The translations under genes were made by a program, and so were the position numbers. From the IMG/VR virus record IMGVR_UViG_3300009158_000042: 64,000 nucleotides of DNA; one strand, written 5' to 3'. The stretch's first letter is position 1. Each line of letters starts with the position of its first letter. Shown here piece after piece: positions 10,629 through 33,425 of this stretch. Source of the DNA: an uncultured virus (IMG/VR IMGVR_UViG_3300009158_000042). Its lineage: Duplodnaviria; Heunggongvirae; Uroviricota; Caudoviricetes. The notes below the pieces were generated by a model. That model did no database searches and was not told the origin of the DNA. It worked only from the letters and a program-made list of their open reading frames with translations.

Positions 10629-10630
10629 AT

Positions 10631-11686: not shown

Positions 11687-11831
11687 CGATAGCGAGCGAT
11701 TGACTTATCTATCACTGTACGGCTCTGTGTGAGCGTCACGGTAACGAGTTGAGTGAGAATGAGTAGTAGTGACAGAGCGAGCGTGTACGGCTCTGTGAGT
11801 AGCGCAAGAATGAATAGCAGAATCTCCATGA

Positions 11832-12035
11832 CTACTGTCTATCAGCAAGTTCAGCAAGAACGGACATAATGTTATTGCCTTCATTCCACATCAGATTATC
11901 GTAGTCCTCGTACGCTTTCTGTGGCGTGTATGTGCCTGCGATTATCTCGTCTTGTATTGCAGAGTAGTATCTAATTGCGCTCGTAAGACTCGCCTGCAAG
12001 TCTGTTAGTAATTCTGATTCAGATGGCTCGGTCAT
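11832..12035 (-). CDS. Hypothetical protein
   Basis: ORF with RBS aagga. Confidence 0.55.
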   Translation of the reverse strand: MTEPSESELLTDLQASLTSAIRYYSAIQDEIIAGTYTPQKAYEDYDNLMWNEGNNIMSVLAELADRQ

Positions 12036-12223
12036 AAAAAATCCTTTTTTTGATTAGTAATAGATAAGTGTCAGATGTGGTACATGAATAGATAAGTGAA
12101 ACGCCAATGTCTCTCGGCAATGTGTAGTACCCACCAAAGGAGAAACACGATTACCGAGAGACACTAGCACCAGTGCCTCTGTTGGGAACAACCAAGAAAC
12201 CAACAGAGGCAGGGACTTATCTA

Positions 12224-13771
12224 TTACTGAATGTTCACGCCCATGTGCTGACGATAAGTGTGAACGAACATTGACGGATACACGCTCTTTGGCTTTATGC
12301 CTTTGTTCATGTTGGACAGTTGCTCAATCGCTTCCTCAATGTGTGGCACAACAATGTAGTTGTGTTTCATTGCGTAAGTTAGGCACTGCATAGCGAGCAG
12401 GTCTGTGTAACCATCACCTTCGCCACACACTCCACCGTCTGTAATCCAAACGAGAGGAGTGTTGCGATACTGGCGATTCTCTACGCCCCACACGATTGCA
12501 GGATAATCAACACCGTTTCCGTGTCCGTAAGGAATGTTCTCCAATGTCTCAATCATTCGTCCCTTATCAGCGATAATCCACATGTTCGCACCGTTCTTTT
12601 TGTGACGGTCTGAATAGATTGCCACCGTTGCGCCTTTTGCCAAATCTGTAATCTGCCAAATCTGCTCTTTGGTGAATGACATAGAACCACTTGCGTCAAT
12701 GATGACCATGCCACCACTGCCACGAACGGTCTTGTCAAATACTCGCTTTGCAGGGTCAGTCATGTAACGGTGCATACGGCGTGGTCTGCGCCCCATGTTC
12801 GTAGCAACACGCTTCTTGCCGATTGTGCCAGCGTGTAAGCGTGGCATAGGAACACGCTCAATGCGTAGTTCTGCCCACTTGCCAGTGCCACTGTGTGATG
12901 TTGGGGTAATGCTCTGATGAGGAATACCTTTCTTGTCACCTTCCTCTGAATCGCCTTCGTTGGAATGGACTGCCGTAGCAGGGTCTTTCTCGCCTTCTTC
13001 GCCTTCGCCTGACTTATCTATTCCCTTTGCACCTGCACCAGCCTTGCCTTCTTTCTCACGCTCTTTTGGTGGTGGGAATGAAGCGAGCCTGTCCACCCAT
13101 TCTGCGATTCTTTCTGTGTGAACGAATCCGTATGGCGCAATGCCGTGATGTTCTGTTGTGTTGGCGAGAGAGCGTGTCTTGTGCGCTTTCTTCATCTCAC
13201 GGACTGCTCGCTTGCTGATGTCAAGCAGAGCGTCACCCCATGCACGATTGTGCCTGCGAATACCGTTCAGGAATTGCTTGTGTCCAGCAGTGCCAGCAGT
13301 TGCGATTGCACCTGTTACTGCACCAGCCCAATCTCCAGTTTTCGCTAGGCGTTCTCCGTCATTGAGTTCTCCACCGTCAGCGAGATTCTTCTTCACATCA
13401 AATCCTGCCTCTTGGCAAAGAATGTTTATGCGTAATTCCTCTACAACGGTCAGTGCAGTAGCAGAAGCCATTTCACGAGCAACCCACATCTCAAATTGTT
13501 CAGAGTTTGGTGAAACTTTTGAGTGCATGAGTTCATGCCCACGAATACAGCGAGCGAGTTCGTCCGTCTGTGACGGTGTGAACATTGTGCGAGTATTCAG
13601 GTCAGTGCTTGGCTCGCCTCTGACTGCTTGACATTCTTCTACTGTCCATCGTCCATGCGCTAAGTCTTTGCGCCCGATGAAGTTTGGCTCGGCTTTCGCC
13701 GTTCCCCCTGACTTATCTATTGACGAGGGGAACGGCTTACCAACGCTCTTTCGTGCTGGCTTGATACTCAT
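12224..13771 (-). CDS. von Willebrand factor A (MIDAS) domain protein, partner of MoxR AAA+
   Basis: HELMH motif, low-complexity linker, IIDASGSM MIDAS motif and WITDG; adjacent to an AAA gene. Confidence 0.8.
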   Translation of the reverse strand: MSIKPARKSVGKPFPSSIDKSGGTAKAEPNFIGRKDLAHGRWTVEECQAVRGEPSTDLNTRTMFTPSQTDELARCIRGHELMHSKVSPNSEQFEMWVAREMASATALTVVEELRINILCQEAGFDVKKNLADGGELNDGERLAKTGDWAGAVTGAIATAGTAGHKQFLNGIRRHNRAWGDALLDISKRAVREMKKAHKTRSLANTTEHHGIAPYGFVHTERIAEWVDRLASFPPPKEREKEGKAGAGAKGIDKSGEGEEGEKDPATAVHSNEGDSEEGDKKGIPHQSITPTSHSGTGKWAELRIERVPMPRLHAGTIGKKRVATNMGRRPRRMHRYMTDPAKRVFDKTVRGSGGMVIIDASGSMSFTKEQIWQITDLAKGATVAIYSDRHKKNGANMWIIADKGRMIETLENIPYGHGNGVDYPAIVWGVENRQYRNTPLVWITDGGVCGEGDGYTDLLAMQCLTYAMKHNYIVVPHIEEAIEQLSNMNKGIKPKSVYPSMFVHTYRQHMGVNIQ

Positions 13772-13773
13772 GG

Positions 13774-14499
13774 TTAGACCACCGAATCAACTGCGATAGC
13801 GTCAAGAATCTGCTTTGCTCGCTTGCCGAATGTGAGTTGGCATGCTCGTTCCATGCCTACGCTCTTACGCAACTTGTCAAGAGCCATAAATGCTCGCAAC
13901 GAGATACGGTCATCGCCAGCGTCAGCCATACGGATTGCGTATCCACGCAAATCCTTTGACAATGCGAGCAGAGCGTGTGGGTGTGGTTCGTTGATACGAA
14001 TACGGATTGGGAAACGGTCAGCGAGTGCTGTTGGCAATTCGCCCATGTTCTCAATGTTCGTGGTCATAATTGCAGAGAAGCCTTCTTTGGGTCGGACTAC
14101 CGAGCCAGTTTCAGGATGCTCAAATGAAGCAGATTCAGGTGAATCAAGCATGGCGAGAAGTGTTGCGAACACATCGCCACCAGCCTTGTCAATTTCGTCC
14201 ACGATAAGTCGTGCGCCAACTGTGCCGTTGCCGTTCCATGCTTTGAGGGCAGAACCGTCAAGCCATTGGAAGCCACCGTTATTACTTGGCATGAAGCCAC
14301 CAGTTACATCCATGTTTGTCATGTCCTCTGTGCAAACAAGACGGTATGCGCCTGCTTCCACATTGCCCATTGTCATACCTGCGTAGGTCTTGCCGATTCC
14401 AGCAGGTCCAAACAGGATTACTCGGTCAATGCCTGCATTGAGAGCGTCATTGAGGTCAGTCCAGCACTGAGGCAGGCTTTCCGTTGTTGTTGATTCCAT
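13774..14499 (-). CDS. MoxR/CbbQ-like AAA+ ATPase
   Basis: Walker A GPAGIGKT, Walker B LIVDEID, sensor TTN, ALADRF. Confidence 0.88.
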   Translation of the reverse strand: MESTTTESLPQCWTDLNDALNAGIDRVILFGPAGIGKTYAGMTMGNVEAGAYRLVCTEDMTNMDVTGGFMPSNNGGFQWLDGSALKAWNGNGTVGARLIVDEIDKAGGDVFATLLAMLDSPESASFEHPETGSVVRPKEGFSAIMTTNIENMGELPTALADRFPIRIRINEPHPHALLALSKDLRGYAIRMADAGDDRISLRAFMALDKLRKSVGMERACQLTFGKRAKQILDAIAVDSVV

Positions 14500-14788
14500 C
14501 TCTATTCTCCTTGTTGTTGGTGAGTGGTGAACACACCATACCAGCGTAGGTACAGACCTACAAACCTGACTTATCTATTCAGTAGAGACTTATCTATTCA
14601 GTATCAGAAGCGCACCACTTATCTATTCACTCTCCACTTGTGGGCAAGCGAGCGAGCGAGTGCGCCAGCGCAAACTTTTTTATCTCTACCCCCATGCTCG
14701 CCACACGCCCTTCTGCGTTGGAGCCCCGATGTTGCCGAGCAGTGCCGGGGCTCCTATGGGAAAGGGGACTTATCTATTACAGATAGTT

Positions 14789-15271
14789 TTATTTTTCTCG
14801 TTTGGGAACCATAAGAACTTCCCATAGTCCATTTTTGATTTTGCGAAATAATGGAGATTCTTTGAGGTAGGTCAAAGTTGTCTGGTAAGAGAATCCTGAT
14901 TGTTCTGTGAGTTGGTCAGATGTAAATTGCTCTGCCTGATGTTCGCTTGACCACTGCTCAAATGCTGACCACTTATCTTTGCGCTTCTCTGTGCGTTCTA
15001 CTTCTACCTGTGCGTCAGATAGTCCGATGAATGTTGATAGAAGGTACTTTGATACTTCTGCCTGCACCGAGTATGTACTTAGGTACGATTGTGGTACACG
15101 CTGTCCACCTTCTCGTTGCCAAATCTGCAATACATAAAGTCCTCTGTTTATTTCAGAAACATAAGAAACTTCCGAGAACGGAACTGCTGTTGCGTTTTTG
15201 TATTTTTTGAGAAGCACTGCCCAATGTTCTTTGTGTACTTCTTTGATTAGGTCATCTGTAATAGTTTGCAT
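14789..15271 (-). CDS. Hypothetical protein with C-terminal winged-helix-like segment
   Basis: FTSDQLTEQSGFSYQTTLTYLK...FRKIKNGLWEV. Confidence 0.55.
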   Translation of the reverse strand: MQTITDDLIKEVHKEHWAVLLKKYKNATAVPFSEVSYVSEINRGLYVLQIWQREGGQRVPQSYLSTYSVQAEVSKYLLSTFIGLSDAQVEVERTEKRKDKWSAFEQWSSEHQAEQFTSDQLTEQSGFSYQTTLTYLKESPLFRKIKNGLWEVLMVPKREK

Positions 15272-15351
15272 TTTTTCCTTTTTTTTGCAGTTTCTACCGT
15301 TTAGTTTTTTTCTAAAAAATCGTTTTTTTGATAGATAAGTAAGTTGGGCTG

Positions 15352-15561
15352 TTAGTCAATAACAACCCAACTGTCCTCTCCCTTGATTAGTCCGAGACTA
15401 GACCCACTATCCCACTGCACAAACATTGTTCCTAGTGAATCAAAGTCGGTAATGACCCCTTCATCTCCTTTGGATAGTTTGGTGTGAATGTCAGATGTGT
15501 AAATCAGCCTGATTCTCCTGCCAATAAGTGCTTCTAGTCCTGCTGACAACTTATCTATCAT
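15352..15561 (-). CDS. DUF4314-like small protein
   Basis: GRRIRL...GDEG.I...D..G...VQWDSGSSLGLI.GED pattern. Confidence 0.7.
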   Translation of the reverse strand: MIDKLSAGLEALIGRRIRLIYTSDIHTKLSKGDEGVITDFDSLGTMFVQWDSGSSLGLIKGEDSWVVID

Positions 15562-15712
15562 GCTGGCTCTTTCTCTTGTAACGCGATGATTCGCATGTCT
15601 AATAGAAAATCTGTCATTTCTAATGACGAAACAATGTCTCTGCCTGAACAGTGGGAGATTGCTTTGTCAATCAACAAGACGATTGGTGACTTATCTATTA
15701 CAGATTCTTCAC

Positions 15713-15952
15713 TCATTCTGCGTACCCGTAAATAACCATGTCAAGTTCGTTGCCTTCTTCATCGGTGTACTTCTTCTTTCCCTCTCCTGCACAGTCGTCA
15801 AAGTATTCATCGGCTTCCAACATAATCATTTCCATGATGTCATCAAAGTCGGGCTTCTCATCGTTGTCCTCTCTGAATCGCTTTGCCGTTTCTGCCACAT
15901 CAAATGTGACAGTATTGGTGCGAGTTACTGTGATTGTTTTTGGCTCAGACAC
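15713..15952 (-). CDS. Hypothetical acidic protein
   Basis: GTG start supplied by the AATAGATAAGTG motif. Confidence 0.55.
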   Translation of the reverse strand: MSEPKTITVTRTNTVTFDVAETAKRFREDNDEKPDFDDIMEMIMLEADEYFDDCAGEGKKKYTDEEGNELDMVIYGYAE

Positions 15953-15956
15953 TTAT

Positions 15957-16625
15957 CTATTCCTCATCTTTCTTTTTCTTAGCGTTACCAAGTAGGTCGT
16001 GGTAACGGTGAGCAACTACGGCGAGTTTCATGTAGGCAGTGGTAGCACCCATAGCCTCAACCATGCGTCCGTACTCCTGACCTTCTTTTACTTCGCTTAC
16101 ATCTGCCATGTAATCTTCTTCCGAATACACAGGAACTCCAAAGTCATCGTAGCGATACATTTGAGTAGCACTACCAATCAACGAACCATCCCAGTCCATG
16201 CCAGTAACAACGATTGCTTCACGGACTTCTGAAAAAGGATTCTCTGAAAAGTCTTTCTGCATTTCGCCACGCTCAAAGTCAATTTCTTCTGATGTGTCTG
16301 CACTACGGCAGAAACCCTCTACACAGAGAAAGAGGAAAGAGAACTCACGGATAGGCATAGCCTTGACTACATCTTCGTACGCCTCTAATACATCTTCACG
16401 GTGAATGAGTGGAATCATTGCAATCTTGTATGGAGAAGATAATTCGTTTTCTTCCTGATACTCAACTGCATCTTCGTCATCGCTCTTGTAAGCAACGAGC
16501 ATGAGTGGGGGAGTGTCTGTCATCCCCTCGTCTTTGCACATTTGCTCTTTGGCGTACTTAGTACGGTCAAGAACATCCAGCATTATTTTTGACATTTCTT
16601 CTGAAATGGTTTCGTTGATAGCCAT
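15957..16625 (-). CDS. Hypothetical protein
   Basis: RBS aaggag and repeated promoter upstream of ATG 16625. Confidence 0.7.
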   Translation of the reverse strand: MAINETISEEMSKIMLDVLDRTKYAKEQMCKDEGMTDTPPLMLVAYKSDDEDAVEYQEENELSSPYKIAMIPLIHREDVLEAYEDVVKAMPIREFSFLFLCVEGFCRSADTSEEIDFERGEMQKDFSENPFSEVREAIVVTGMDWDGSLIGSATQMYRYDDFGVPVYSEEDYMADVSEVKEGQEYGRMVEAMGATTAYMKLAVVAHRYHDLLGNAKKKKDEE

Positions 16626-16685
16626 TGGCTTTCTCCTTGTTGGTAGGTGTGCAGTCATCGTACCAGTACAGGTACAGAACTACAA

Positions 16686-16892
16686 CTATCCAAGCAACCC
16701 CTGAATGGGGAGACTTAGTGCGTCACTTAGCGAGACAAGAGTGTCCACGCTCGGCGAATAATGTTGGTTCTCAATACGGTTCACCGTTTTTCGTTCCAGC
16801 CCTGCTCGCTTTGCTAGTTCCTCTTGTGACCAGCCTCTTTCTTTTCTTTCAGTTTTTAGCCGTGTGGCAATTACTTCTGTTGCGTTTCCCAT
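16686..16892 (-). CDS. XRE/Cro-family helix-turn-helix regulator
   Basis: RKERGWSQEELAKRAGLERKTVNRIENQHYSPSVDTL. Confidence 0.9.
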   Translation of the reverse strand: MGNATEVIATRLKTERKERGWSQEELAKRAGLERKTVNRIENQHYSPSVDTLVSLSDALSLPIQGLLG

Positions 16893-16926
16893 GTTGTTTC
16901 CTCTCTTGGGGACTTATCTATTTAGT

Positions 16927-17583
16927 TCAGAATGACGGAATGAAACTCTGAAACACCTTTCTCCTTTTATTTCCCCTTCTCCATGCCACATACTCCCTGA
17001 TAGTGGCATCCAAATCTATGTCATGCTGGTCAGTGATGAGATTGCGCCATTCACTTTGTGCTTCGTAGAACTCGTCATACAACTCGTCAAGCCCTGATTC
17101 TGACGCTTTTTCGTACATCTGTATCAGTTCAGGTGGTTGCGTCATGTCACACATGTCCTCTGCAATCTTTTCGCCGTCACAGTAAAGTTCCCAACCAGCG
17201 TAGAAATCTGCTTCTTCTGTGCAACTGTACCCAAATACCAATTTAGGGAACTGCTTGCTGATGTTCTCAATCAACTTGTCACATGGACTCCATGCGCTCG
17301 TGTAGCGCAGATGTAGTGGGTACGAATCTTTATCGTCAATCTCTATGTCACAAGCACCCCACTTGCTTCCCCACACGCCAAGTGCGCCACCAAAGAAAGA
17401 ATCAAGTTTGTCCACCCATTCACTCTCGTCAGGGATAGGTACTAGATGGTTCATGTCATAGTGAGCGTTTATCTTGCGCCCTAGTTCATCATAATCTTCG
17501 GGCATTGAGATTGCTTTGAGAAACTTACGAGTTTCTGTTTTGTTCCCTGCAACAACAAGGTTTGAGAAGCACCAGTTTGGCAT
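16927..17583 (-). CDS. YubB/DUF1281-like protein
   Basis: MPNWC start, WGSKWGA, YTSAWSP motifs. Confidence 0.7.
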   Translation of the reverse strand: MPNWCFSNLVVAGNKTETRKFLKAISMPEDYDELGRKINAHYDMNHLVPIPDESEWVDKLDSFFGGALGVWGSKWGACDIEIDDKDSYPLHLRYTSAWSPCDKLIENISKQFPKLVFGYSCTEEADFYAGWELYCDGEKIAEDMCDMTQPPELIQMYEKASESGLDELYDEFYEAQSEWRNLITDQHDIDLDATIREYVAWRRGNKRRKVFQSFIPSF

Positions 17584-17841
17584 GGTAGTCCTTTCGGGTT
17601 AGTGGTGGTATGCAATGAGCGTACCAGCACAGGTTCAGAACTACTCGGGGGGACTTATCTATTACTCATCCACCACCGTCATTGACTAACGAGCAAAAGT
17701 TTTCTATCTCATCCCCCAAGATTTTTGACTTTTCTATCTCTACCCCCCATGCGCCGATTTTTTCTCTTTTTCGCCGTGTTCCGAAGGAGCCCCGACCAGT
17801 TTGGTTCGCCCCGGGGCTCTTTTGGGAAAAGGACTTATCTA

Positions 17842-18165
17842 TTACATAGGGAGAGTTACGAGTTGTGCCGAGTGGATGTACCAGCCGTAAGCGTGACGGT
17901 GTGTCATGTAGTGCAGTAGTTCCTTGACATCGGTAAGGTGCGTGAACACATCTTCCAACGGAACGCCGTGGCTATCAAAGAATCCACGCTCGGGCTTGGG
18001 TGAGAACGAGATGTACATGTTCTCGTATCCCTCATAAGAGCCATAAGACCTCTGTGGCTTTATCTGGCACTGCGCTCCAATAAACTTTTTTTTTGTCATC
18101 ATCAGAAAGAGAGTCTTTATCAAAGACCAAATGTGGGCGAATGACTTATCTATTACCATTCTCAT
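17842..18165 (-). CDS. Hypothetical protein
   Basis: ATG overlaps upstream TGA. Confidence 0.5.
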   Translation of the reverse strand: MRMVIDKSFAHIWSLIKTLFLMMTKKKFIGAQCQIKPQRSYGSYEGYENMYISFSPKPERGFFDSHGVPLEDVFTHLTDVKELLHYMTHRHAYGWYIHSAQLVTLPM

Positions 18166-18407
18166 GCCCTTCGCCAAACGCTGAACTGTTCGGTCAGGTC
18201 GGTACCAATCAGGGCAATAGTCAATCGTGCAATGGATTCCAGCAGTTCTTTTTCGGTAATGCCCCATTCCTCGTTAGCCCACGGGAACATCATTCCGTTC
18301 TCGTAGTCACACCAAATGTTCGCCATTGCGCCAGCACGACTAACGCCAATGCTGTAATAGTTTTCCCATAGGATTTCATCAACTGCGTATTTGCTAGTTT
18401 TCGTCAT
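18162..18407 (-). CDS. Hypothetical protein
   Basis: ORF in coupled chain. Confidence 0.55.
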   Translation of the reverse strand: MTKTSKYAVDEILWENYYSIGVSRAGAMANIWCDYENGMMFPWANEEWGITEKELLESIARLTIALIGTDLTEQFSVWRRA

Positions 18408-18609
18408 TTTGTACTTCCTCTGCTACGTGCGATGAAATCGTGTCTGCAATTTTTGAGAAATCTACACCAAACGATGCTTTCCATCTGTCCAGTACAACTT
18501 CCATCGCAAGGTTCGCAACTTCTTCCGTAGAAAGATTTGCCGAGTCAATGCTCAGCACTTCCCTTACTGTTGCTGGTCCAACTATTGCTGTTACTTCGTA
18601 AAGAGCCAC
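18394..18609 (-). CDS. Hypothetical protein
   Basis: GTG start within AATAGATAAGTG motif. Confidence 0.55.
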   Translation of the reverse strand: MALYEVTAIVGPATVREVLSIDSANLSTEEVANLAMEVVLDRWKASFGVDFSKIADTISSHVAEEVQNDEN

Positions 18610-18613
18610 TTAT

Positions 18614-18841
18614 CTATTCCTCATCTTCATAGTCGCTGTCCACGGAGAACCAGCGCATCACTGTTAGAAGCAGGTTATCGTAATCGCCCGATGTTGCTTC
18701 GGCACGAAACGCCTCTATCTCATCGGCAGTCAATCCTGCTCGCCGAGCAATTCTCTGCACACGCCCAAGTATGGAGAAGGCGTTGCCGTCCTCTCCTACT
18801 AGTGGAATGTTGATGTGTGGGTATTTTGTATCTGTACTCAT
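18614..18841 (-). CDS. Conserved phage hypothetical protein
   Basis: LVGEDGNAFSILGRV...ATSGDYDNLL pattern recurrent in phage small proteins. Confidence 0.65.
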   Translation of the reverse strand: MSTDTKYPHINIPLVGEDGNAFSILGRVQRIARRAGLTADEIEAFRAEATSGDYDNLLLTVMRWFSVDSDYEDEE

Positions 18842-19053
18842 TCTGAGTGTTCTCCTGTTTCCATGTCAATAGCGTAAGCATCTTCCAACTTGGCTCCTGC
18901 CAAGCCTGCAACATTCCTGCCGAATGTTCTAGCCATTTTGCCTGCTTCTTTTAGGCTCTTGGCTTCTACGGTGGTATCTTCTGTCCACTCGGCAAGACCA
19001 ATCTTTTCCTGCTTTGTCAGCAGAGCGATTATTTCGTATTCTTTTGTTGCCAT
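18838..19053 (-). CDS. Hypothetical protein
   Basis: First gene after promoter copy 19085. Confidence 0.6.
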   Translation of the reverse strand: MATKEYEIIALLTKQEKIGLAEWTEDTTVEAKSLKEAGKMARTFGRNVAGLAGAKLEDAYAIDMETGEHSE

Positions 19054-19128
19054 TACTTTCCCCTTTGTGGTTGGCTTCGCCTTCACTGTACCACAAGAGG
19101 TACGGAACTACAAGGGGGACTTATCTAT

Positions 19129-19440
19129 TCATGAACAGAGGTAGTCAAGCCACAGTACGAGAATGTCCAACGGCTCTGACATTGACGGAAATGCGTCCGA
19201 GGCTAGGAACTGGAAGTCCGAGAACATCAACTCGTTCGTCTCCGTGTAACGGTTGCACCCACCTTCTCCCATGTTGTACACGGTCAGGAACTCCACACCA
19301 TTGCGTGAGACAACTGCCTTCCAGTAAATCCCTCGGTCATGTTCGCTCTCCTCTTGTAGAGCAAACCTGTACCCCATCTTGTCAGGGCGCAGTTCGTCAG
19401 GAACGCTGTCAAAGATTTCTTCTATGTTTAGGTCAGTCAT
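19129..19440 (-). CDS. Hypothetical protein
   Basis: ORF; NMGEGG motif. Confidence 0.55.
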   Translation of the reverse strand: MTDLNIEEIFDSVPDELRPDKMGYRFALQEESEHDRGIYWKAVVSRNGVEFLTVYNMGEGGCNRYTETNELMFSDFQFLASDAFPSMSEPLDILVLWLDYLCS

Positions 19441-20481: not shown

Positions 20482-20596
20482 GATGGCTCTCCTTGTTTGG
20501 TAGGTGTTGATAGCGTACCACTGTGGGTACAGAACTACTGGTGGACTTATCTATTGAGTAGTGGGGACTTCTCCCCACTACTCGCAGATGAATTGG

Positions 20597-23951: not shown

Positions 23952-23952
23952 G

Positions 23953-24976: not shown

Positions 24977-24977
24977 G

Positions 24978-25466: not shown

Positions 25467-25807
25467 GTCTTACCCCTTCTAAGTAGTTTGACTACTCGTA
25501 CAATACCAGCAAAGGTACGGAACTACTAGGGGACTTATCTATTCAGTATCGGCTCGCAGTATCCACTCGGATACGCTCGCAGTTGGCTCGCATACTTCGC
25601 TCGGACTTATCTATTCAGTAATCACCCACGCCTCGCACCTACCAGCACCAGCACTCTTTTTTATCTCTACCCCCGTTGCGCCCCCACCCGTCACTTCTCG
25701 GTGGGGGCCCCGTTCGCGCTGAGTCATGCCGGGGCTCCCATCGGGCGCAAGGTCAAGCCTTGACCTACCCGTGAGAGTAAGTCAAGGCGAGACTATCTAG
25801 CACTTAT

Positions 25808-26242
25808 CTATTCAGGAAAGGCGCTAGCCCTTGCGAGTAATCCCGTAAGTATGCCGTCAGCGTAGTAGTCAGGCGCTGTGCCGTCTAGGTACTTGCCCAA
25901 TGAGGCTAGGACTGTGCGCTCAAACTCGGCGAAGGACTTATCGCCGTAGCGCCCCACCGCTTGCGTGGCAAACTTGGTAGCAGGGTAGGTAGCGAAGTCA
26001 AAGACGGTAAATGATGTCACGCTCATGGTGGCGTGTGGTTGCCAGTGAACTAGACGGATAGTTGCCTCATACTGCTTGCGCTTAGCGTCATGGCTGAACT
26101 CAAGTTCTATTTGCTCACCCCACAAGTCATTGCTGTGGACATGCGGAATGTCTACCTTTGAGGACTGCCAACGGTAGGTGACCTCACGGTCACGCTCACG
26201 GCGCTTGGCTTGCGCTAGTAGGTTGGTGGTTGCTGTGGTCAT
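25808..26242 (-). CDS. Hypothetical protein
   Basis: First leftward gene from the divergence point. Confidence 0.65.
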   Translation of the reverse strand: MTTATTNLLAQAKRRERDREVTYRWQSSKVDIPHVHSNDLWGEQIELEFSHDAKRKQYEATIRLVHWQPHATMSVTSFTVFDFATYPATKFATQAVGRYGDKSFAEFERTVLASLGKYLDGTAPDYYADGILTGLLARASAFPE

Positions 26243-26613
26243 GGTTACCCCTTCATGGTTGTTTGACTACTCGCATAGTACCATCGTAGGTACGGAACTA
26301 CTGTGGGACTTATCTATTACCGATACGCTCACGCCTCGCCACTCGGCAACCCCCGATAGTTGGGCTTATCTATCTCAACCCCCGTCACAGCCTCGGAGTC
26401 TCTCGGACTCTTACGGTTGGAGCCCCGTTCGCGCTCGGTTCCCTCGGGGCTCCCATCGGGAAGGGCGCTTCCCTACTCTTGGGGGTCGTGATAAAAAAGT
26501 TTCATCTAATCGGTCAGGGTCTTTCTTTCATAGATAAGTCTCGGTGGAGGTTTGTACCTCACCATGTACTCTGTGTCCAGTTGGGGGATGGTCTCCCAGC
26601 AGGAAGGGATGCC

Positions 26614-27135
26614 ATGTTCGGTGTTGTTCAGCAGTTGGAGGACGAAGAGGTGCAGGCTCGCACTGTGCTTTTCGTTTACGAAGTCAAAGAGGAAGGCGAT
26701 GCACTCGCTGTGGTTGGAACATTCCACCCCAACTTCTTTGACCAAGACATTGTCAATCTCATCAAGGAAGAGCGCCAGTGCTCTTACAACCAAGCAGAGG
26801 ACGACGAGCAGGGTTCAGCGATGGAAGCCTGTGGTTGCATTTGGTGCCTCACCGAAGGCACGGGCTATCTCAATTGGGGAAGCAACGGATGGGATGACAT
26901 TCCGAGAGGGTTCGCATTTGTGCAGTTTCCAAAAAGCGCTGCAATCGCCGAAGGCTCGCTCATTCTTGTTGAAGGCAAGTGGCTCTCCGAGGACATCCAC
27001 GGCGTTTCGGAAACCAAGTCCGTTATCAACTACGAGACCACAATGGTGGAGACCTCGCATGGCACCTACCCCGAAGCCGAGTGCCTTGCAGTTGAGCATT
27101 GGGAGTTGCTACCAGCACTCCCAGCCAATCGGTAA
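26614..27135 (+). CDS. Hypothetical protein
   Basis: First rightward gene; RBS aggaaggg, promoter copy 26544. Confidence 0.6.
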   Translation: MFGVVQQLEDEEVQARTVLFVYEVKEEGDALAVVGTFHPNFFDQDIVNLIKEERQCSYNQAEDDEQGSAMEACGCIWCLTEGTGYLNWGSNGWDDIPRGFAFVQFPKSAAIAEGSLILVEGKWLSEDIHGVSETKSVINYETTMVETSHGTYPEAECLAVEHWELLPALPANR

Positions 27136-27393
27136 TAGATAAGTCATCAACCACTCTGAGTGAAAGAAGAACTCGCTCAGAGTGATGACCAAGGAAGCCC
27201 CGGCTCGCTCGTTCCCAACGGGGCTCCCTTGCGCTTCGCTTGCTTCGGTGGTGGGGGTCGTGATAAAAAAGTCTGCTCCTCGTTGCGAGGGAGAAGCTCG
27301 GGTTATCTGTAATAGATAAGTACCCCTAGCAGTTCTGTACCTATTGGGTTACTATTGAGTGACCACATAACACTTTCCTGAAGGGGGAACTAA

Positions 27394-27807
27394 ATGTCAA
27401 AAATAGATTATGACGGAATACAACTTTCGTACGAGGCTCAAGTTATTGAGTCAGATAAAAAGTTGCTTGATGCTTTACTTGATGCCGTGAAAGATGAAGA
27501 ACTTGCACCTTTCACATTCCACATGGAGTGGGTCATCTGTGATTACTGCCGTGGCAACGGTGGACACTCTCGCCGTTTCGGTGCAATGAGTTCAGAAGAG
27601 TTTGCAGAGTGGAGCGATGAGTCTCGTGAAGCGTACTTGCGTGGTGCTTACGATGACCGTTGTGAAGCGTGTGATGGAAGTGGAAAGGTCTATGAGATGA
27701 ACGAAGGCGCATTGCCTGAAGAAGTTATTGAGTTCATTGACAACTACCGTCAGTACGCATTTGATAGCGCATCTGAAAGTCGTGCTGAACGAATGGCAGG
27801 TTGCTGA
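27394..27807 (+). CDS. Hypothetical protein with DnaJ-type CxxCxGxG motifs
   Basis: CDYCRGNG...YDDRCEACDGSG. Confidence 0.7.
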   Translation: MSKIDYDGIQLSYEAQVIESDKKLLDALLDAVKDEELAPFTFHMEWVICDYCRGNGGHSRRFGAMSSEEFAEWSDESREAYLRGAYDDRCEACDGSGKVYEMNEGALPEEVIEFIDNYRQYAFDSASESRAERMAGC

Positions 27808-28046
27808 TGTTTACTTACCGTGTAACTGTTCAGGTCACGCTTGATGTTGAGGCAGAAGATGACGATGGAGCAATGGCAGTAGCAATGCAGAATGTCAGTG
27901 CTCGCATAGGCGATGACCGTACAACACCTCTCCACGAAAGAACTGATGCAATGTGGGTGACAGGCATTGCTGAAAGAGATTACGAATACTTTTGTTACAA
28001 GCAACCATTCCCACTATGGGTAATAGATAAGTCAGAGGACTACTAA
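27807..28046 (+). CDS. Hypothetical protein
   Basis: TGATG-coupled ORF. Confidence 0.55.
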   Translation: MFTYRVTVQVTLDVEAEDDDGAMAVAMQNVSARIGDDRTTPLHERTDAMWVTGIAERDYEYFCYKQPFPLWVIDKSEDY

Positions 28047-28048
28047 TC

Positions 28049-28339
28049 ATGAATAACAAAAGCGATAGTTATTACACACTTAGGTCTGTCATTCGTTTTA
28101 TCTTTTGGGGAACGATACTCGCAGTAATCATGTGGATTGTTACAACATCTATTGCAGTTTTTGCATCTGATGAAACACCCGATTGTGATGTGACATTAGA
28201 GCGTGACTTCACATGGAACGCTCGTGAGTTCGCAGTGCTCAATCCAACCAAGACGCTTGCAGATTGCCGTCATTACCAAAGCGTTGTTCTCAATGAGAAC
28301 GGCACATGGGAATGGTACGACCCATACATGGACTCATAG
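28049..28339 (+). CDS. Hypothetical membrane-anchored protein
   Basis: N-terminal TM helix. Confidence 0.6.
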   Translation: MNNKSDSYYTLRSVIRFIFWGTILAVIMWIVTTSIAVFASDETPDCDVTLERDFTWNAREFAVLNPTKTLADCRHYQSVVLNENGTWEWYDPYMDS

Positions 28340-28440
28340 AAAGGATTGATTATGGTTTTTTTATTTGTTATTGCAGTAACGCTTGCAGTTCTAATAGCAA
28401 TAGTTCGTGACGATAGATGGTGGTGAACACTTATCTATTA

Positions 28441-28752
28441 CTAATCAAACGAACGAGACACTGGTAAGTCGCATTGCAAACAATCGTAATGTGCAAGTGT
28501 CTTTTTTGTTTTTCTCTTGACGATGTACGCAGATGAAAGATGACCACCACCTTCGTACTCACTCAACAATGCTTGATGCGTTTTTATCTCTTCGCTGTTG
28601 AGACCTAAGTCCTCGGCGCAGTACGCACAGATGTAGCCATCGGCAATCTCGTCATAGATGACAGATGTAGTCATGTCATCTTGCTCGTACTCATCAGAGA
28701 ACTGGTTGGTGCTAGTTGCAAAGTACGGTTGGAGTGCTTTTGTTTTTTTCAT
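28441..28752 (-). CDS. Hypothetical Zn-binding protein
   Basis: CAYC...CLQC; RBS gagga. Confidence 0.6.
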   Translation of the reverse strand: MKKTKALQPYFATSTNQFSDEYEQDDMTTSVIYDEIADGYICAYCAEDLGLNSEEIKTHQALLSEYEGGGHLSSAYIVKRKTKKTLAHYDCLQCDLPVSRSFD

Positions 28753-29345
28753 TTTTTCCTCTCACCTCTTATGAGGTTGCTTGTGTTTTACAATCGGACA
28801 TTTTTTCTTACATCTTTTACAAGAGTCCTTGCATCTCTTTATGTCAAAAGTTTTTGTCCGTTACCTATTAGACGTGTCATCGTCTCCGTTTCTGAAAACG
28901 ATGCTCGCAGTTGATAGAAGCGTCATCTTGATACGAAAACGAAACGACTTATCTATTCAGTAATAGAAAGCAGGCTTCGCTCGGAGAAAGTAAGCGAGTC
29001 AGCAACTTTTCTATCTCTACCCCCGTTGCAAGGCAGTTATGCCAGCGCATGGGAGCCCCGATGCTGTTCGCTCCTAACGGGGCTTCTACCTCGCGCGCGT
29101 GACGCCGAGAGCAGCAAGCTTGGGGGGTCGCGATAAATAAGCAAGATTTCAGCTGGGAGCTGGGAGCTGGGAGCTGGCGAAATAAGGGATAGATAAGTGG
29201 TTTAAATCTTTTACAAAACTGACCGATTGCAAAACGCAACTCCTTGCAAATAAAGGGTTTGCGGTCGTAAAAATGTAGGTTTGTACCTACTTTTGTATAA
29301 TCCGCGCACGCCCACAACCACCACAACAACCCACAAGGAGCCCAC

Positions 29346-29447
29346 ATGAAGCCACACGATAAGAACAGCCGCCCACCTACCTCATTCGTAGGCGGCGCAG
29401 GTCATTGGAATAAGCGCGGCAAATCAAAGCCAAAAGATAAAAAGTAA
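29346..29447 (+). CDS. Small basic peptide (33 aa)
   Basis: aaggag RBS after promoter copy 29273; MKPHDKNSRPPTSFVGGAGHWNKRGKSKPKDKK. Confidence 0.45.
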   Translation: MKPHDKNSRPPTSFVGGAGHWNKRGKSKPKDKK

Positions 29448-29474
29448 TTCGGACAAAGGAAGGAACCACACCCG

Positions 29475-30083
29475 ATGAACACACACCCACACCACGCAGC
29501 AGTAGTAGACGCAATCAAGGCGCTACCTGCTTACACAGACCCGCAGACATTCTTTGAGTCAGAACTAGCCGAGTGCTACTCAGACGAGGAGCTTGTAGAA
29601 ACATTCGGCTGGGACGGAGACAAGGCGCTCACAATCAAGCAGGCGCTCAAAGCAGTCAAGGAGCTTTGCGAGCTTCGTCAAGATGTTTACGGCTGGATTA
29701 TTGAGGAAGGCGACCGAGAGCGCGAAGCAGAGCAAGAGGCGTACAAGCGCTGGCGCGAAGAACAAGAGGCAGCTAGCCGTTGTGGTTGGCTCGTAGAGCG
29801 CTCATGGGAAGCAGCTTTCCCATTCGTGCCGAACCCCGAATACACAGATGAGGAGAACGCCGAACACAGGCAGTGGCACGGTGAAAGCCTCGGTGAACGA
29901 GCAGCAGAGTCAGGCAACCGCTACGCAATCGTTGATTGTGGTGCGAAGCTCGCAGATGTCATTCGCAACGGCGTGCGAGTTGGTTGGGAGTGCGAAGCAG
30001 GTCACCGTTCCATCAGCATGGAACACATGACGCAAGAGGAGCAGGACGAGCAATACCGCTTGGATTACGAGGACAGCTACTAG
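29475..30083 (+). CDS. Hypothetical acidic protein
   Basis: ORF, RBS aaggaagg, followed by motif and GC hairpin. Confidence 0.65.
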   Translation: MNTHPHHAAVVDAIKALPAYTDPQTFFESELAECYSDEELVETFGWDGDKALTIKQALKAVKELCELRQDVYGWIIEEGDREREAEQEAYKRWREEQEAASRCGWLVERSWEAAFPFVPNPEYTDEENAEHRQWHGESLGERAAESGNRYAIVDCGAKLADVIRNGVRVGWECEAGHRSISMEHMTQEEQDEQYRLDYEDSY

Positions 30084-30249
30084 CCACCTCTTGGAATAGA
30101 TAAGTTCTCCCCACGCCCCCACCCCCCCTTCCATCAGGGGCGTGGGGTTTATCGCAGGGACAAGCCCCGTTCGGGTTCGTTTCCGTCGGGGCTCTCATCG
30201 TTAGCGCGAAATGTCCGTAGGTCTGTACCTCCCCGGGTACTCTGTGGCC

Positions 30250-30579
30250 ATGACAAAAAAACACTTCACCGATTACACCAAAGCCGAAGCATGGGCCGAG
30301 AAAAACAACCTCGCCCTAGAACCCATCGGAACCTGCTGGGAGGAGCACACAGTGGCCTCATGGAAGAGCGATACCACCCGTATCGAAATATGGATTCAGG
30401 AGATGGAATACGCAGCAGAGCACGAGCGTGGCGGATACATCCCTTGCCTTGTGGATTGCCCTGTAGTCCTCGTGTGGGACGGCCTAGAGGCCAATGCGCC
30501 CTACACGCTCCACCCTGACTTCTGCACGCTCACAGAGGCTCGCAAGGGCTTCGATGAGTTGGTCAGGCAAGCGAGTTAG
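30250..30579 (+). CDS. Hypothetical protein (probably leaderless)
   Basis: ATG 7 nt after the -10 of promoter copy 30215. Confidence 0.55.
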   Translation: MTKKHFTDYTKAEAWAEKNNLALEPIGTCWEEHTVASWKSDTTRIEIWIQEMEYAAEHERGGYIPCLVDCPVVLVWDGLEANAPYTLHPDFCTLTEARKGFDELVRQAS

Positions 30580-30863
30580 ACACCCGGTGAACTTTTTCTC
30601 CCCGGCACGAAATTCCCTGCCGGGGAGAAATTCCGGCGGGTTTTTTCTTCACCGGAATTTCTTGCCGGAATCGGAAAGATTTTGCGCTAATGGTAGAAGC
30701 CCCGTTCTCGTTCGTTCTCTATTGTTTCGAACGGGGCTCTCATCGGCTCGGGTGTTCGGCGCGAACAACACGCGATGGGGGTTGTGATAGATAAGTGTAG
30801 GTCTGTACCTGACCAGGTACGATGCTTGTACGGCGGGAAGTACCCGCCCATGAAGGGAAAGTC

Positions 30864-31145
30864 ATGAAGCAAGTAACAATCACATGGAAAGCGTTCGGCG
30901 AACCAACATCGGCTGCACTCGCGCTTGACACGAGCGCAAGCGCGTTGGAGATATGCGATGCAATATTCCACCAAACGAATGTTTACGCTGGTCCGATATG
31001 GGACGAACTGGAACCGCTCCTGCCAGCCACACGCACACACACTGCGCTTTCAGTTGGAGACGAAGTCACAGTTGATGGCGAAGTGATTCGGTGCGAGCCA
31101 ATGGGTTGGGCTACCAGGTTCATCGCTGACGCTCTTACTGAATAG
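30864..31145 (+). CDS. Hypothetical protein
   Basis: RTHTALSVGDEVTVDG...CEPMGW pattern. Confidence 0.6.
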   Translation: MKQVTITWKAFGEPTSAALALDTSASALEICDAIFHQTNVYAGPIWDELEPLLPATRTHTALSVGDEVTVDGEVIRCEPMGWATRFIADALTE

Positions 31146-31357
31146 ATAAGTCCCCCCAGCGGAGAACCCCACCTCACTCGGGTGGGGTTCTTCCCGTTCT
31201 CAAGACAGCCCCGTGGCTGTTCGGCACGAACGGGGCTCTCATCGGCGAGCGAGCGAGAATGATTGGGGGTCGCGATAGAAAAGTTTCCAAAAGAAAAGGT
31301 TGCAATCCTGTACCTGCTGTGGTACGATTTCATCAGACCAGTAGAAGGGGTTGACCA

Positions 31358-31657
31358 ATGAGGAAAGAGACACGCTCTCTCAAAAAGAAAGCCGAAGGCC
31401 TAGGCATTTCGGTAGATGAATTAGTTGAGGAAATGGAAGTCGGGAATCCCGACAAATCGTTCGTCATAACTGTGGCCTTTGACCGATACAAAGATTTGCG
31501 TTCGTTCGCAGACGAAATCGCTCAGAGAATGGGTCTCGCAATTTATCAGGCCGATTCACTTGACCACGAATACAACGGCAGTGTGCGAGACGGAATGTTC
31601 GTCCTGCGAGACCCGAACGGTTTCCACGGCAAACCAGACCATTGGAGGGTTGACTAG
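31358..31657 (+). CDS. Hypothetical protein
   Basis: Promoter copy 31300 and RBS aagggg. Confidence 0.6.
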   Translation: MRKETRSLKKKAEGLGISVDELVEEMEVGNPDKSFVITVAFDRYKDLRSFADEIAQRMGLAIYQADSLDHEYNGSVRDGMFVLRDPNGFHGKPDHWRVD

Positions 31658-31731
31658 TGGTGATAGATAAGTCCCCTTGTAGTTCTGTACCTTATGTAGT
31701 ACGCTCTGTTCAGACCACGGAAGGGGTTTCC

Positions 31732-32034
31732 ATGATAACAACGGAAAAATTCGAGATGCTCAAAGAGCAACTGGAAGCATCAACAGACCAGATGAAGAAA
31801 ATGGTAGAGGCGCTAAGAACGCCAACACCATGCGATTGCTGCTTCTCAGACGAGGAGAACGCTGAGAATTATCGCGATTTTGAGAACGCAGTTCGCGACC
31901 TCTCTAACGAATGTCAAGAGATTGCGATGAAGGCCTACGATTGCTACATGGCCATCACCCGCGCTCCACTGGAAATTGCGCTCGCACAACTGGATGCGAT
32001 GCAAGAGGGCTACCGCCTCCTCGCCGAACAATAG
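31732..32034 (+). CDS. Hypothetical helical protein
   Basis: Promoter copy 31677 and RBS gaagggg. Confidence 0.6.
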   Translation: MITTEKFEMLKEQLEASTDQMKKMVEALRTPTPCDCCFSDEENAENYRDFENAVRDLSNECQEIAMKAYDCYMAITRAPLEIALAQLDAMQEGYRLLAEQ

Positions 32035-32275
32035 GTAATAGATAAGTCCCCCGAGCACCCCCCGCTCGGGGGATTTTCTTTGCCCGTGACCCAGCCCGTA
32101 CTTGTAATAGATAAGTCCCCTGTTGTGATGAAGCCCCGTCTTCGGCGGAGTCCGTTCGTCTCCGACGGGGCTCTCATCGGCGAGCGAGCGAGAGTGCATT
32201 GGGGGTCGTGATAAAAAAGTGTAGGTCTGTACCTAGTGCAGTACAGTGTGGTCATACCAACGGAAGGGGTACGAG

Positions 32276-32782
32276 ATGCCAAAGACGGCTCTACAAGTAA
32301 AGACCACAGGTGAAGTAGTAATGCTTGACCTAGAGGGTGACGAACTAGCAACACTGCAGAGTGCAGTGGGCGGATACATTGAAGCAATAAACTTCACCAA
32401 CTCGCTGACTATGTGGTGCAACGAAGAAGGCAAACTAGACGGTCTCTCGCAGAACATCATTGCTCAACACTTCTATGACAATGCATACGGTGCAGGGCGT
32501 GACATTATCGTGGGTGATGTTGTATTCACTGGCGGTGCTGATGATGAAGGTGACACAATGGGTCTCCGTGAAGAATTGGTCAAAGACATTCACGAAGTAG
32601 CCGAGCGTCTTGCTCGCTCCGCAGTGTTCATCACCAAGGCAGAGACGAAGAAGGTCATGAGCTGGCAAGACCATCTCGGTGACGCTCCTATGACAGAGGA
32701 GAATGTGTGGCAGGCAATTGCTGATGCGAATGACCTTGACTACGACGAAATTGCTGACGGCGATTTATTTGAGTGGCTCTAG
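32276..32782 (+). CDS. DUF3846-like protein (paralog of 20038-20481)
   Basis: LQSAVGGYIE...WCNEEGKL...IVGDVVFTG. Confidence 0.75.
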   Translation: MPKTALQVKTTGEVVMLDLEGDELATLQSAVGGYIEAINFTNSLTMWCNEEGKLDGLSQNIIAQHFYDNAYGAGRDIIVGDVVFTGGADDEGDTMGLREELVKDIHEVAERLARSAVFITKAETKKVMSWQDHLGDAPMTEENVWQAIADANDLDYDEIADGDLFEWL

Positions 32783-32869
32783 CGCTCAATTATTGGTAAT
32801 AGATAAGTGCCAATTGTAGGTCTGAACCTACGGTGGTACTGTGTGGTCACCTAAGGAAAGGGGTACGCA

Positions 32870-33211
32870 ATGTCATCAGACATTACATTCATCAACAGAG
32901 TGCAGGAAGCACTCACGGCAGGCAAGGTTATCGGGGACGGGCACACTCTGTTCGCTCCCGAGTTCTACGAGCCGTACTTCACGGCAGAGGAACTCTCTAG
33001 CCTTATTCGTAAGCACGAATCTCACGGCTCGTGGAAATCCACCATCTTTGACGAGGACGGCAATGTCATTCCTGAATTAGAGGCTATCTACAATCTAGAT
33101 TTTCTCTACTGGCTCGCAGGGCAACTCGGAGTGACGGAGCGCACCACAGCGAACGGCAGAGGCTCGCAGGCTCAGCAACTCGTAGGGTACATCAGAGAAA
33201 TACTGGTCTAA
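32870..33211 (+). CDS. Hypothetical protein
   Basis: Promoter copy 32814 and RBS gaaagggg. Confidence 0.6.
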   Translation: MSSDITFINRVQEALTAGKVIGDGHTLFAPEFYEPYFTAEELSSLIRKHESHGSWKSTIFDEDGNVIPELEAIYNLDFLYWLAGQLGVTERTTANGRGSQAQQLVGYIREILV

Positions 33212-33425
33212 CCAACAGAGCCACAACGGCTCCCTACTGAATAGATAAGTCCCCCGAGTGTCATTGCTCGGGGGACTTGTCGTGTCCATGCACATTCGAG
33301 TCTTGTATCTGTAATAGATAAGTACCCCGCGCCAAGGAAGCCCCGGGTGACTCCGTTTCACACGGGGCTCTCTTGTGAGATTGTTTAAAGATGTGTAGGA
33401 TTGCTTAACTATTCAGGAGGACATC

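Follow-up and report, generated by a model that had tools for sequence, protein, structure and literature searches.

A modular accessory-gene array with an invariant palindrome and a lineage-specific oriented word in an uncultured freshwater myovirus

The DNA considered here is a stretch of 64,000 nucleotides, referred to throughout as the window, which corresponds to bases 30,875–94,874 of the 158,714-bp virus record IMGVR_UViG_3300009158_000042 (45% G+C). The products of this genome include a tail sheath, a portal, a major head protein and a large terminase, and the phage is an uncultured 159-kb myovirus of freshwater. Between positions 11702 and 34114 the window holds an array of accessory genes arranged in about 20 transcription units which, as judged from the feature map, a promoter scan and the orientation of a repeated word, run leftward to the left of 26.4 kb and rightward beyond it. 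The units are composed of a palindrome with one or two arms, a promoter, a ribosome-binding site, one to seven small genes and an intrinsic terminator, and the 11-base word AATAGATAAGT is found at almost all junctions, shortly before most promoters and at the outer tip of each arm. The explanation that best accounts for the whole, and which in its full form we hold to be a little better than an even bet, is that a modular array resembling the PeSL cassettes of T4-like phages has been overlaid with a word that is private to each lineage and resembles the stoperators of mycobacteriophages.

The array had first been proposed by a model from the letters of the window (hereafter the original prediction), and the parts that it named, namely palindrome, arm, word and promoter, are all present in numbers far above chance. 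With up to one mismatch the word occurs 67 times in the window against 1.07 expected, a count reached by none of 100 shuffles, whilst the arm GGGGGTNGNGATAAAAA, with up to two mismatches, occurs 21 times against 0.12 expected and the palindrome AGCCCCG-N(16–27)-CGGGGCT 15 times against 0.00 expected. The exact 10-mer ATAGATAAGT is found 66 times in the complete genome, with 65 of the 66 copies falling between 4.8 and 41.4 kb of the window, and all the arms and palindromes of the genome are confined to 14.7–33.4 kb. Each arm is built from GGGGG followed by five nucleotides and a word-like end (GATAAAAAAGT, GATAGAAAAGT), the word being exact at 30777. A pattern scan places the palindromes at 14722, 17788, 19608, 21180, 22088, 22994, 24423, 26421, 27196, 29054, 30163, 30698, 31207, 32132 and 33339 (starts; span 14722–33369), and eight copies folded as RNA gave energies of −18 to −32 kcal/mol. 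An analysis of extended stems and wobble pairs in the palindrome flanks found partial, quasi-palindromic pairing and no clear strand signal, and so did not separate a role in RNA from a role in DNA.

The conserved promoter takes the form GTAG(G/T)TCTGTACC-N7-GGTACnnT, in which GGTACnnT represents a TAnnnT-like −10 element. A regular expression for this promoter matches 19 times between 14.5 and 32.8 kb of the window and once elsewhere in the genome, with a shuffle mean of 1.95. The matches, which together span 14557–32843, start on the minus strand at 14557, 16679, 17640, 19107, 20534, 21067, 22020, 22845, 24309, 25522 and 26297, and on the plus strand at 26550, 27333, 29279, 30221, 30801, 31683, 32225 and 32820; an extra copy was recognised by eye at about 31300 (~31.30 kb), which brings the tally into line with the 'about 20 modules' first suggested. 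Each promoter is followed by a leader of about 25–45 nt and then by an AAGGAG or AAGGGG ribosome-binding site and an ATG. A generic sigma-70 scan returned 10 sites, below the 18.4 found in shuffles, and a terminator scan returned 29 sites against 18.3 in shuffles, an excess that arises in part because the reverse word is T-rich. The small proteins encoded in the array are largely unassigned, with no PHROG family at E ≤ 1e-4 for 25 of the 32 that were scanned. Each array arm also encodes one of a pair of paralogous DUF3846 proteins (20038–20481, −; 32246–32782, +).

The positions of the word are far from random. Among the exact copies lying between 8 and 40 kb, 35 of 62 close an open frame of at least 40 codons, as compared with 12% of 2,000 random positions, and the upstream stop codon usually overlaps the word, as TGA-ATAG.., TAA-TAG.. 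or an internal TAG or TAA. In 16 of the 19 promoters the word, or in one case the word-like end of an arm, lies 0–10 nt upstream of the GTAG; the gap is 6–7 nt in 11 of the 19, and the word falls at about −53 to −43 in 15. At least ten copies are directly followed by a hairpin, five stand 15–17 nt before a palindrome, and some, such as those at 32106 and 33313, lie downstream of strong terminators and upstream of promoters. Between the word and the following start codon there are 16–79 nt in this phage and 0–74 nt in two relatives that were examined, though many copies have no start nearby. One copy (15951–15961, −) is found between the Shine-Dalgarno sequence and the start codon of a coupled junction, and two other lineages carry their own word at the orthologous junction. 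The word also occurs within coding sequence, a point that the original prediction had missed. Action on DNA is favoured by the copies that follow terminators or precede promoters, which are places likely to be poorly transcribed, and by the constant distances at which the word stands from promoters and palindromes.

Leftward and rightward units diverge at a central two-armed element (26365–26500), which consists of an arm on the minus strand (26365–26383), a palindrome (26421–26451; RNA fold −24.8 kcal/mol) and an arm on the plus strand (26481–26500). On its left is a leftward promoter (26274–26297, −) preceded by a word at 26308–26318 (−), and on its right a rightward promoter (26550–26573, +) preceded by a word at 26529–26539 (+), in agreement with the original prediction of a two-armed element at the divergence point flanked by promoters. 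The two promoters start at 26297 and 26550. Exact copies of the word between 11.7 and 34.2 kb (n = 59) follow the same polarity, with 33 on the minus and 9 on the plus strand to the left of 26.4 kb, and 15 on the plus and 2 on the minus strand to the right, so that 48 of the 59 agree with the half of the array in which they lie. The mirror symmetry claimed for the array is approximate only, since further two-armed elements are present at 21180, 22088, 24423 and 29054 and a small leftward unit occupies 28.4–29.0 kb inside the right half. Short rightward units are also seen within the leftward half (21246–21462, 22150–22271 and 24485–24645, all +), each extending from the second arm of a two-armed element to a terminator made of word and hairpin; the unit at 22150 has a reverse word followed by two forward words. 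These units may give rise to small or antisense RNAs, or may be vestigial.

Related loci were fetched with three anchors, a helicase, a 164-amino acid (aa) array protein and the AAA ATPase of the array, and four complete related genomes were added. The palindrome ends, AGCCCCG and CGGGGCT, are identical in all close lineages, and each of six complete genomes, our own included, has 10–15 clustered copies, as against none for a reversed control pattern in five relatives. The spacer ranges from 16 to 40 nt or more, a variability more in keeping with a hairpin or cruciform than with the binding site of a rigid dimer. Whereas the palindrome is invariant, the word is not. In a survey of 45 loci with at least 6.7 kb upstream of the ATPase gene, a ubiquitous word is present in 32, all with an ATPase identity of at least 82%, and takes at least eight lineage-specific versions, AATAGATAAGT, GGTAGATAAGT, GAGTAGATAAGT, AGAGTAGATAACT, CTAATAGATAACT, ACTnACTAGATAAGT, GGTGTAGGTAAGT and ACTAAAGGATAATGTAA, with the variants built around a TAG(A/G)TAA(G/C)T core. 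The forward density is 18–32 copies per 10 kb in each version, and in pooled non-identical loci the word is found 444 times forward and 78 times reverse relative to transcription. In four of four complete genomes 90% of the copies fall within about 24–29 kb. The remaining 13 of the 45 loci (ATPase identity 71–77%) have one-directional promoter-type repeats only, as do two distant loci, L029 and L030, which were fetched through proteins 40–44% identical to the 164-aa array protein. L029 uses a plain cassette of terminator, palindrome and promoter, with 17 palindromes and 22 promoters in 20 kb, and L030 has a similar word, TAGATTATTC, inside each promoter, directly after the −35 hexamer. In the upstream 10 kb of another IMG/VR locus, L055, the word is the very different 17-nt ACTAAAGGATAATGTAA, which includes a Shine-Dalgarno-like AAGGA and an ATG-TAA start-stop pair and obeys the same grammar, except that it is not embedded in the gene for a von Willebrand factor A (vWA)-like protein described below.

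The word changes in concert with the arms. In four of four lineages inspected the arms end in the lineage's own word (..GATAAAAAAGT, ..CCGATAACT, ..GCAGGTAAGT and ..GGGATAATGTAA). Across three lineages gene order in the left arm is largely preserved, with protein identities of 30–80%, and the same left-arm junctions carry each lineage's own word; the right arm has few orthologues in relatives. From these patterns we infer that the word itself is selected and is read by something that differs between lineages. Because the gene order of the left arm is kept while the word changes at the same sites, a reader that co-evolves with the word is a better account than a collection of insertion scars.

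Some sites lie within a gene. The last gene of the leftward arm (12224–13771, −) encodes a conserved protein of 515 aa, which matched no Pfam family and in which an HExxH motif and a DxSxS/vWA-like motif can be recognised by eye in an alignment. Next to it is the gene for a MoxR-like AAA_5 ATPase of 241 aa (13774–14499, −), the anchor mentioned above, and this pair closes the left arm in all lineages, including the distant L029 and L030. Two copies of the word lie inside the gene for the 515-aa protein and are both read as IDKS, one at 13012–13022 (−) in a linker at about residue 250 and the other at 13711–13721 (−) at about residues 17–20. At the orthologous sites both words are exact in six of the eight word classes, and a seventh has one exact copy and one near-match. 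The encoded peptide tracks the DNA word, being IDKS for AATAGATAAGT, VDKS for G(G/A)GTAGATAAGT, VDNS for GAGTAGATAACT, LDKS for ACTAGATAAGT, GVGKS for GTGTAGGTAAGT and IDNS for AATAGATAACT, and the N-terminal segment that bears the word is missing from the protein in the two word-less lineages checked. Selection for the DNA word is strong enough that it dictates amino acids of a conserved protein in seven lineages. Recombination alone is insufficient to explain a word that is lineage-specific and yet kept at orthologous sites, even within a gene.

The modules themselves are gained and lost. Strain-variant contigs from four lake metagenome runs were compared over 13401–33400, a region in which 17.9% of positions are no more than 13 nt away from a word, arm or palindrome. 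Of six read-supported indels, four have both ends this close to such an element (binomial P = 1.5e-5). A 44-kb variant contig (depth 41), colinear with the array at about 95% identity, lacks a two-armed palindrome element bounded by inverted words (22026–22272, 247 bp) and has 27 nt in its place. The same contig lacks a promoter-plus-gene module (31284–31676, +; gene 31358–31657), which is missing in variants with breakpoints at the arm end GATAGAAAAGT and the word GATAGATAAGT; its junction, shared by a second run, is seen in X5 as a joint 31283->31677 and in X8 as a loose end at 31677. A further module (30187–30731, +; gene 30211–30579) is absent in variant X4 through a palindrome-to-palindrome joint, 30186->30732, with a side of 71 nt, and contigs from the X4 run have a joint 31252->32200 that links the sequences lying immediately before two arms. 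Two weak joints of X4, 17846->22313 and 21463->24589, whose sides measure 20–21 nt, were excluded from the indel count. The 44-kb contig also has two insertions of about 205 and about 250 nt, flanked by 9–10-nt repeats in Shine-Dalgarno regions.

Two pairs of related loci behave in a similar way. L048 contains a module of about 480 nt, flanked by direct copies of word plus promoter, that L054 lacks, and L074 contains, unlike L073, a module of about 800 nt that reaches from inside one palindrome to 12–25 nt beyond a second, beside its arm, at a location different from that in this phage. In G2 a module flanked by palindromes on both sides lies at a different location. For the two pairs of loci merged events only were considered, checked by eye, as gap-by-gap statistics are unusable where forced alignments split replacements. 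That relatives have elements at orthologous positions speaks for a long residence, and the synteny of the left arm shows that this part of the array is not freely shuffled. The idea that gain and loss should break at the elements is borne out by the four indels and the two further pairs of loci, and fails for the remaining two indels, which lie at Shine-Dalgarno microhomology. That of a PeSL-like early island is supported in part, as regards a modular, co-regulated design and the exchange of modules at the intergenic repeats; an early or host-takeover timing is a prediction, and amendment is needed as regards the syntenic left arm and the word, for which recombination does not suffice.

The analogy with PeSL cassettes that had been drawn holds for architecture and turnover. 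These cassettes, known from the T4-like phages RB49/phi1, PST/T4 and nt-1/KVP40, combine a sigma-70-like promoter with a stem-loop (PMC2839356, PMC4122927). Both systems repeat a composite unit in which a stem-loop accompanies a conserved sigma-70-like promoter, both occur where small genes of unassigned function abound, and in both the cassettes bound indels between close relatives. PeSL crossovers are also described between Shine-Dalgarno and −10 boxes, a parallel to the two insertions found here in Shine-Dalgarno regions, and recombination between flanking PeSL cassettes is described as forming excised mini-circles. In contrast, our phage is not T4-like and shares no sequence with these cassettes, and its stem-loop is an invariant armed palindrome without a U-run, separate from the true terminators. 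The additional oriented, lineage-specific word at about 60 sites, one gene included, has no counterpart in the available parts of the PeSL reports.

For the word, the closest likeness among known systems is to the operators and stoperators of Cluster A mycobacteriophages, and repression would follow by this analogy. These are asymmetric sites of about 13 bp in more than 20 copies, bound by repressors such as L5 gp71 and that of TipsytheTRex; the repressor is monomeric, with a helix-turn-helix (HTH) and a Stoperator domain, and its binding stops transcription, an effect abolished by reversal of the site (PMC9283540, PMC6550527). Both systems have an asymmetric site of about 11–13 bp in tens of copies (here 66 exact, non-palindromic 10-mers), placed at promoters and in short intergenic spaces, with an orientation tied to transcription and a motif that differs between related lineages. 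Unlike stoperators, the word is tied to an invariant armed palindrome and its roughly 60 copies are confined to an accessory region of 25–29 kb in a myovirus of 150–170 kb, in which no integrase was found, no homologue of the two-domain repressor was recognised and the candidate reader is PadR/MarR-like.

The mechanism that we propose is a prediction as regards the use and timing of the promoters, the binding of a protein, whether that protein represses or activates, and which protein is the reader. Most likely, host RNA polymerase would transcribe the array from its roughly 20 copies of one sigma-A-type promoter, a reading supported by the TAnnnT-like −10 element and by the failure to find a sigma-70 region 2 in the genome or a DxDGD motif in the six largest proteins. 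The repeats, together with short Shine-Dalgarno microhomologies, would serve as crossover points through which whole modules are gained, lost and moved, recombination being the presumed cause of these gains and losses. The word would be bound by a DNA-binding factor, encoded by the phage and specific to the lineage, that controls transcription across the entire array, probably by blocking both initiation and elongation, as the L5-type repressor does at its operators and stoperators. A bolder form of this proposal, which we put forward as speculative and rather improbable, is that the word is in each lineage a private regulatory barcode, 9–13 nt long, written at about 60 junctions, into the arms of every palindrome near a promoter and into the codons of one conserved protein, and that a fast-evolving winged-helix reader uses it to switch the array off or to license it. 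If that were true, each phage in a mixed infection would control its own array only, a lytic-phage counterpart of heteroimmunity, and a module acquired from a different lineage by way of the universal palindrome adaptor would work only after re-barcoding.

A comparison of protein content between this genome, three word-bearing genomes and one word-less genome points to a PadR/MarR-like winged-helix protein of 171 aa (1368–1883, −) as the best candidate reader. Its gene is syntenic, and the protein is 27–34% identical between lineages where its neighbours are 50–85% identical; four relatives could be reached through a word index. The predicted structure (mean predicted local distance difference test score, pLDDT, 74.9) has a helix-helix-helix-wing order, and the best Foldseek rows are PadR and MarR regulators, some of them solved with DNA (probability 0.96–1.00, best E 5e-3). 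The putative recognition helix differs in every lineage. Directly upstream, a 144-aa protein (1898–2332, −) that is about 60% conserved and winged-helix-like by eye forms with it a tandem of putative regulators.

Other proteins were considered as readers and set aside. A 233-aa protein (15957–16658, −) is present in 13 of 13 word-bearing and 0 of 4 word-less loci; it has no recognisable fold, the confident model (pLDDT 84.5) having no match in the PDB at E ≤ 1e-3 and nothing resembling a DNA-binding fold, and the ESM Atlas returned only unnamed clusters, below 0.9. Three HTH proteins are ruled out because their recognition helices are too conserved for lineage specificity. These are a Cro/C1-type HTH_3 protein of 68 aa (16686–16892, −), whose helix is essentially invariant across word classes and word-less lineages (matches in 32 of 45 loci), a 126-aa protein (10973–11353, +) with an HA domain and a sigma-70 region-4-like HTH, whose helix is identical in three lineages, and a 206-aa protein (61703–62323), which is 80% conserved with a helix identical in two lineages that have different words. 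The three could instead read invariant parts such as the palindrome.

Several observations weigh against the proposed overlay of a PeSL-like array with a stoperator-like word. A site at −53 to −43 would suit an activator as well as a repressor, and the frequent position of the word directly before terminator hairpins, like the copy between Shine-Dalgarno sequence and start, is explained equally well by a role in RNA. Stoperators belong to temperate phages and are spread genome-wide, whereas no integrase was found in this phage and its word is confined to about 25–29 kb. On the side of turnover, two of the six indels use Shine-Dalgarno microhomology and not the elements, most of the left arm keeps its gene order from lineage to lineage, and the variant data are metagenome contigs, which may mis-join at repeats, a worry lessened by the 44-kb contig at depth 41 and by the junction common to X5 and X8. 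As for the candidate reader, the 171-aa protein has a weak possible homologue (E = 0.003) in G006, a genome that lacks the word, its residues show no simple correspondence to the bases of the word, and the asymmetry of the word is at odds with the usual habit of PadR and MarR proteins, which as dimers recognise inverted repeats.

An alternative that we regard as unlikely places the action of the word in RNA, where it would be the target of a lineage-specific endoribonuclease, RNA-binding protein or antisense RNA that cuts polycistronic early transcripts into mRNAs of one gene each or silences them. The host RNase III sites between the early genes of T7 and the RegB and RegA proteins of T4 offer parallels. 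Such a role would agree with the presence of the word on the sense strand at nearly all junctions (the same 48 of 59 copies), with its overlap with stop codons, its position shortly before ribosome-binding sites and the copy at 15951–15961, and with its occurrence within a coding region; the reverse words in the short rightward units beside two-armed elements could moreover yield antisense RNA. It is less easily reconciled with the many copies for which little transcript is expected, that is after terminators, before promoters and in the arms, or with the set distances of 15–17 nt to the palindrome and 6–7 nt to the −35 region. Nor was a nuclease candidate found, as the 'RNase E' PHROG label on 61703–62323 rests on the 80%-conserved HTH protein.

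Somewhat less likely still is that word and palindrome are mainly recombination sites of a dedicated system for exchanging cassettes, comparable to those of integrons or miniature inverted-repeat transposable elements or acting through short homology, with regulation being secondary. The junctions described above do fall in word/word, arm/word, arm/arm and palindrome/palindrome pairs, the 247-bp two-armed element with its inverted words is present or absent as a unit, the word stands at every part boundary, and the 7-nt conserved ends and variable centre of the palindrome are reminiscent of attC. However, a search for tyrosine integrases (PF00589) found none in the 158.7-kb genome and was positive in 14 of 14 control genomes, which sets the array apart from integrons with their IntI-type recombinase; serine recombinases and HUH enzymes were not searched for. 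The preserved order of the left arm with a word that changes at the same sites, those in the gene included, is not expected of recombination sites, two of the six indels lie at Shine-Dalgarno microhomology, and homologous recombination between the 30-nt promoter repeats already accounts for the junctions.

Least probable of all is that the word is a promoter element, either a single-element promoter for a phage-modified polymerase, a type for which lineage-specific words are known and of which the T4 late promoter and phiEco32 provide examples, or an UP-like or activator site accompanied by scattered debris, since, despite its AT-richness, its position at about −53 to −43 in 15 of 19 promoters and the similar TAGATTATTC inside each L030 promoter, most copies lack a −10 at any constant spacing, some lie between Shine-Dalgarno and start or directly before terminator hairpins, no sigma region 2 was detected in the genome with Sigma70_r2 and no DxDGD motif in the six largest proteins, and debris would not persist at orthologous in-gene sites in seven of eight classes. 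A search for a T7-like RNA polymerase (PF00940) matched nothing here or in any control genome and is hence uninformative.

Repeats of two further kinds of phage also resemble the array. The SAS and ESAS repeats of Cluster K mycobacteriophages comprise a 13-bp SAS with a Shine-Dalgarno core, located 3–7 bp from start codons (PMC3203893, PMC12699233). The SAS is, like the word, a short asymmetric repeat that keeps a single orientation and occurs solely in the non-structural half of the genome, and about half of its copies are joined to variable-spacer inverted repeats whose consensus differs by subcluster. The word differs in having no AGGAG core, a variable distance to the start and, mostly, an overlap with the upstream stop, and the variable and invariant parts are swapped, as here it is the palindrome that is invariant and the short word that varies. 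The array belongs to neither the stoperator nor the SAS system. The early region of the Streptomyces phage phiC31 contains many near-identical early promoters and intergenic CIR inverted repeats, which are the repressor sites of a temperate phage, and we know of no oriented junction word in phiC31. Literature searches for the word and for the promoter core returned unrelated primers and the like, and found no description of the repeats of this phage group.

Should the preferred reading be correct, that of a PeSL-like array under a stoperator-like word, it would extend cassette-mediated gene shuffling and many-site oriented operators from model phages to an abundant uncultured freshwater clade. 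The eight natural word variants with their matched genomes amount to a ready-made experiment on how the specificity of a regulator and of its roughly 60 sites changes together, and promoter, hairpin and word are compact, orthogonal-looking parts that might become tools in the host.

A megablast search of the record against 50,697 phage records gave no match, and the nearest cultured relatives of single proteins are those of Arthrobacter phages for the helicase (31–33% identity) and of Gordonia phages for the terminase (43–44%). DNA of the phage is present in freshwater and lake metagenomes from 13 studies, and 1,940 relatives of a core HTH protein are retrieved at E ≤ 1e-5, a good many from contigs of 145–171 kb, from which the clade is judged to be abundant. 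The host is perhaps an actinobacterium, as is weakly suggested by the best matches to actinophages, a transglycosylase domain resembling Rpf, strong Shine-Dalgarno sequences, the TAnnnT-type −10 and one GAAC-N4-GTTC box, a type that we take to be the Gram-positive LexA box. LexA-type boxes are not enriched in the window (4 against 1.94 expected). A perfect CGAACATATGTTCG palindrome at 10950–10963 lies directly upstream of the gene for the 126-aa HA and HTH protein (10973–11353), and a near-identical box occupies the equivalent place in the relative G001; in the distant L029 several CGAACATATGTTCG-like boxes are found between palindrome and promoter (for instance L029:3637–3700). This box may be a LexA-type site or one for a phage regulator.

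An Rfam scan of the window gave two tRNAs only, and the palindrome matched no RNA family at gathering score. The tRNAs, tRNA-Met (CAT) and tRNA-Ile (TAT), are adjacent at 45055–45216 (−). The genome also has three giant open reading frames of 4250, 3369 and 2645 aa, one of them at 48585–61337 (−) of the window and two outside it, at 110339–118276 and 120118–130227 of the genome. DUF3626 and RNase_T exonuclease domains are present in the 4250-aa protein, the 3369-aa protein has parts resembling a prohead protease, an anti-restriction protein and a helicase, and nothing matches the 2645-aa protein; all three may be multi-function proteins that are injected. The record begins and ends (1–200 and 158515–158714) inside a collagen-like GXY repeat gene with the same 60-nt period, and for this reason the 'direct terminal repeat' may be an assembly overlap within a repeat and not a true genome end. 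Outside the window, at 7616–13918 and 140600–142866 of the genome, are genes for a tryptophan-halogenase-like protein, a glycosyltransferase and a pair of ParB-like and PAPS-reductase-like proteins, which suggest modification of DNA or of a surface.

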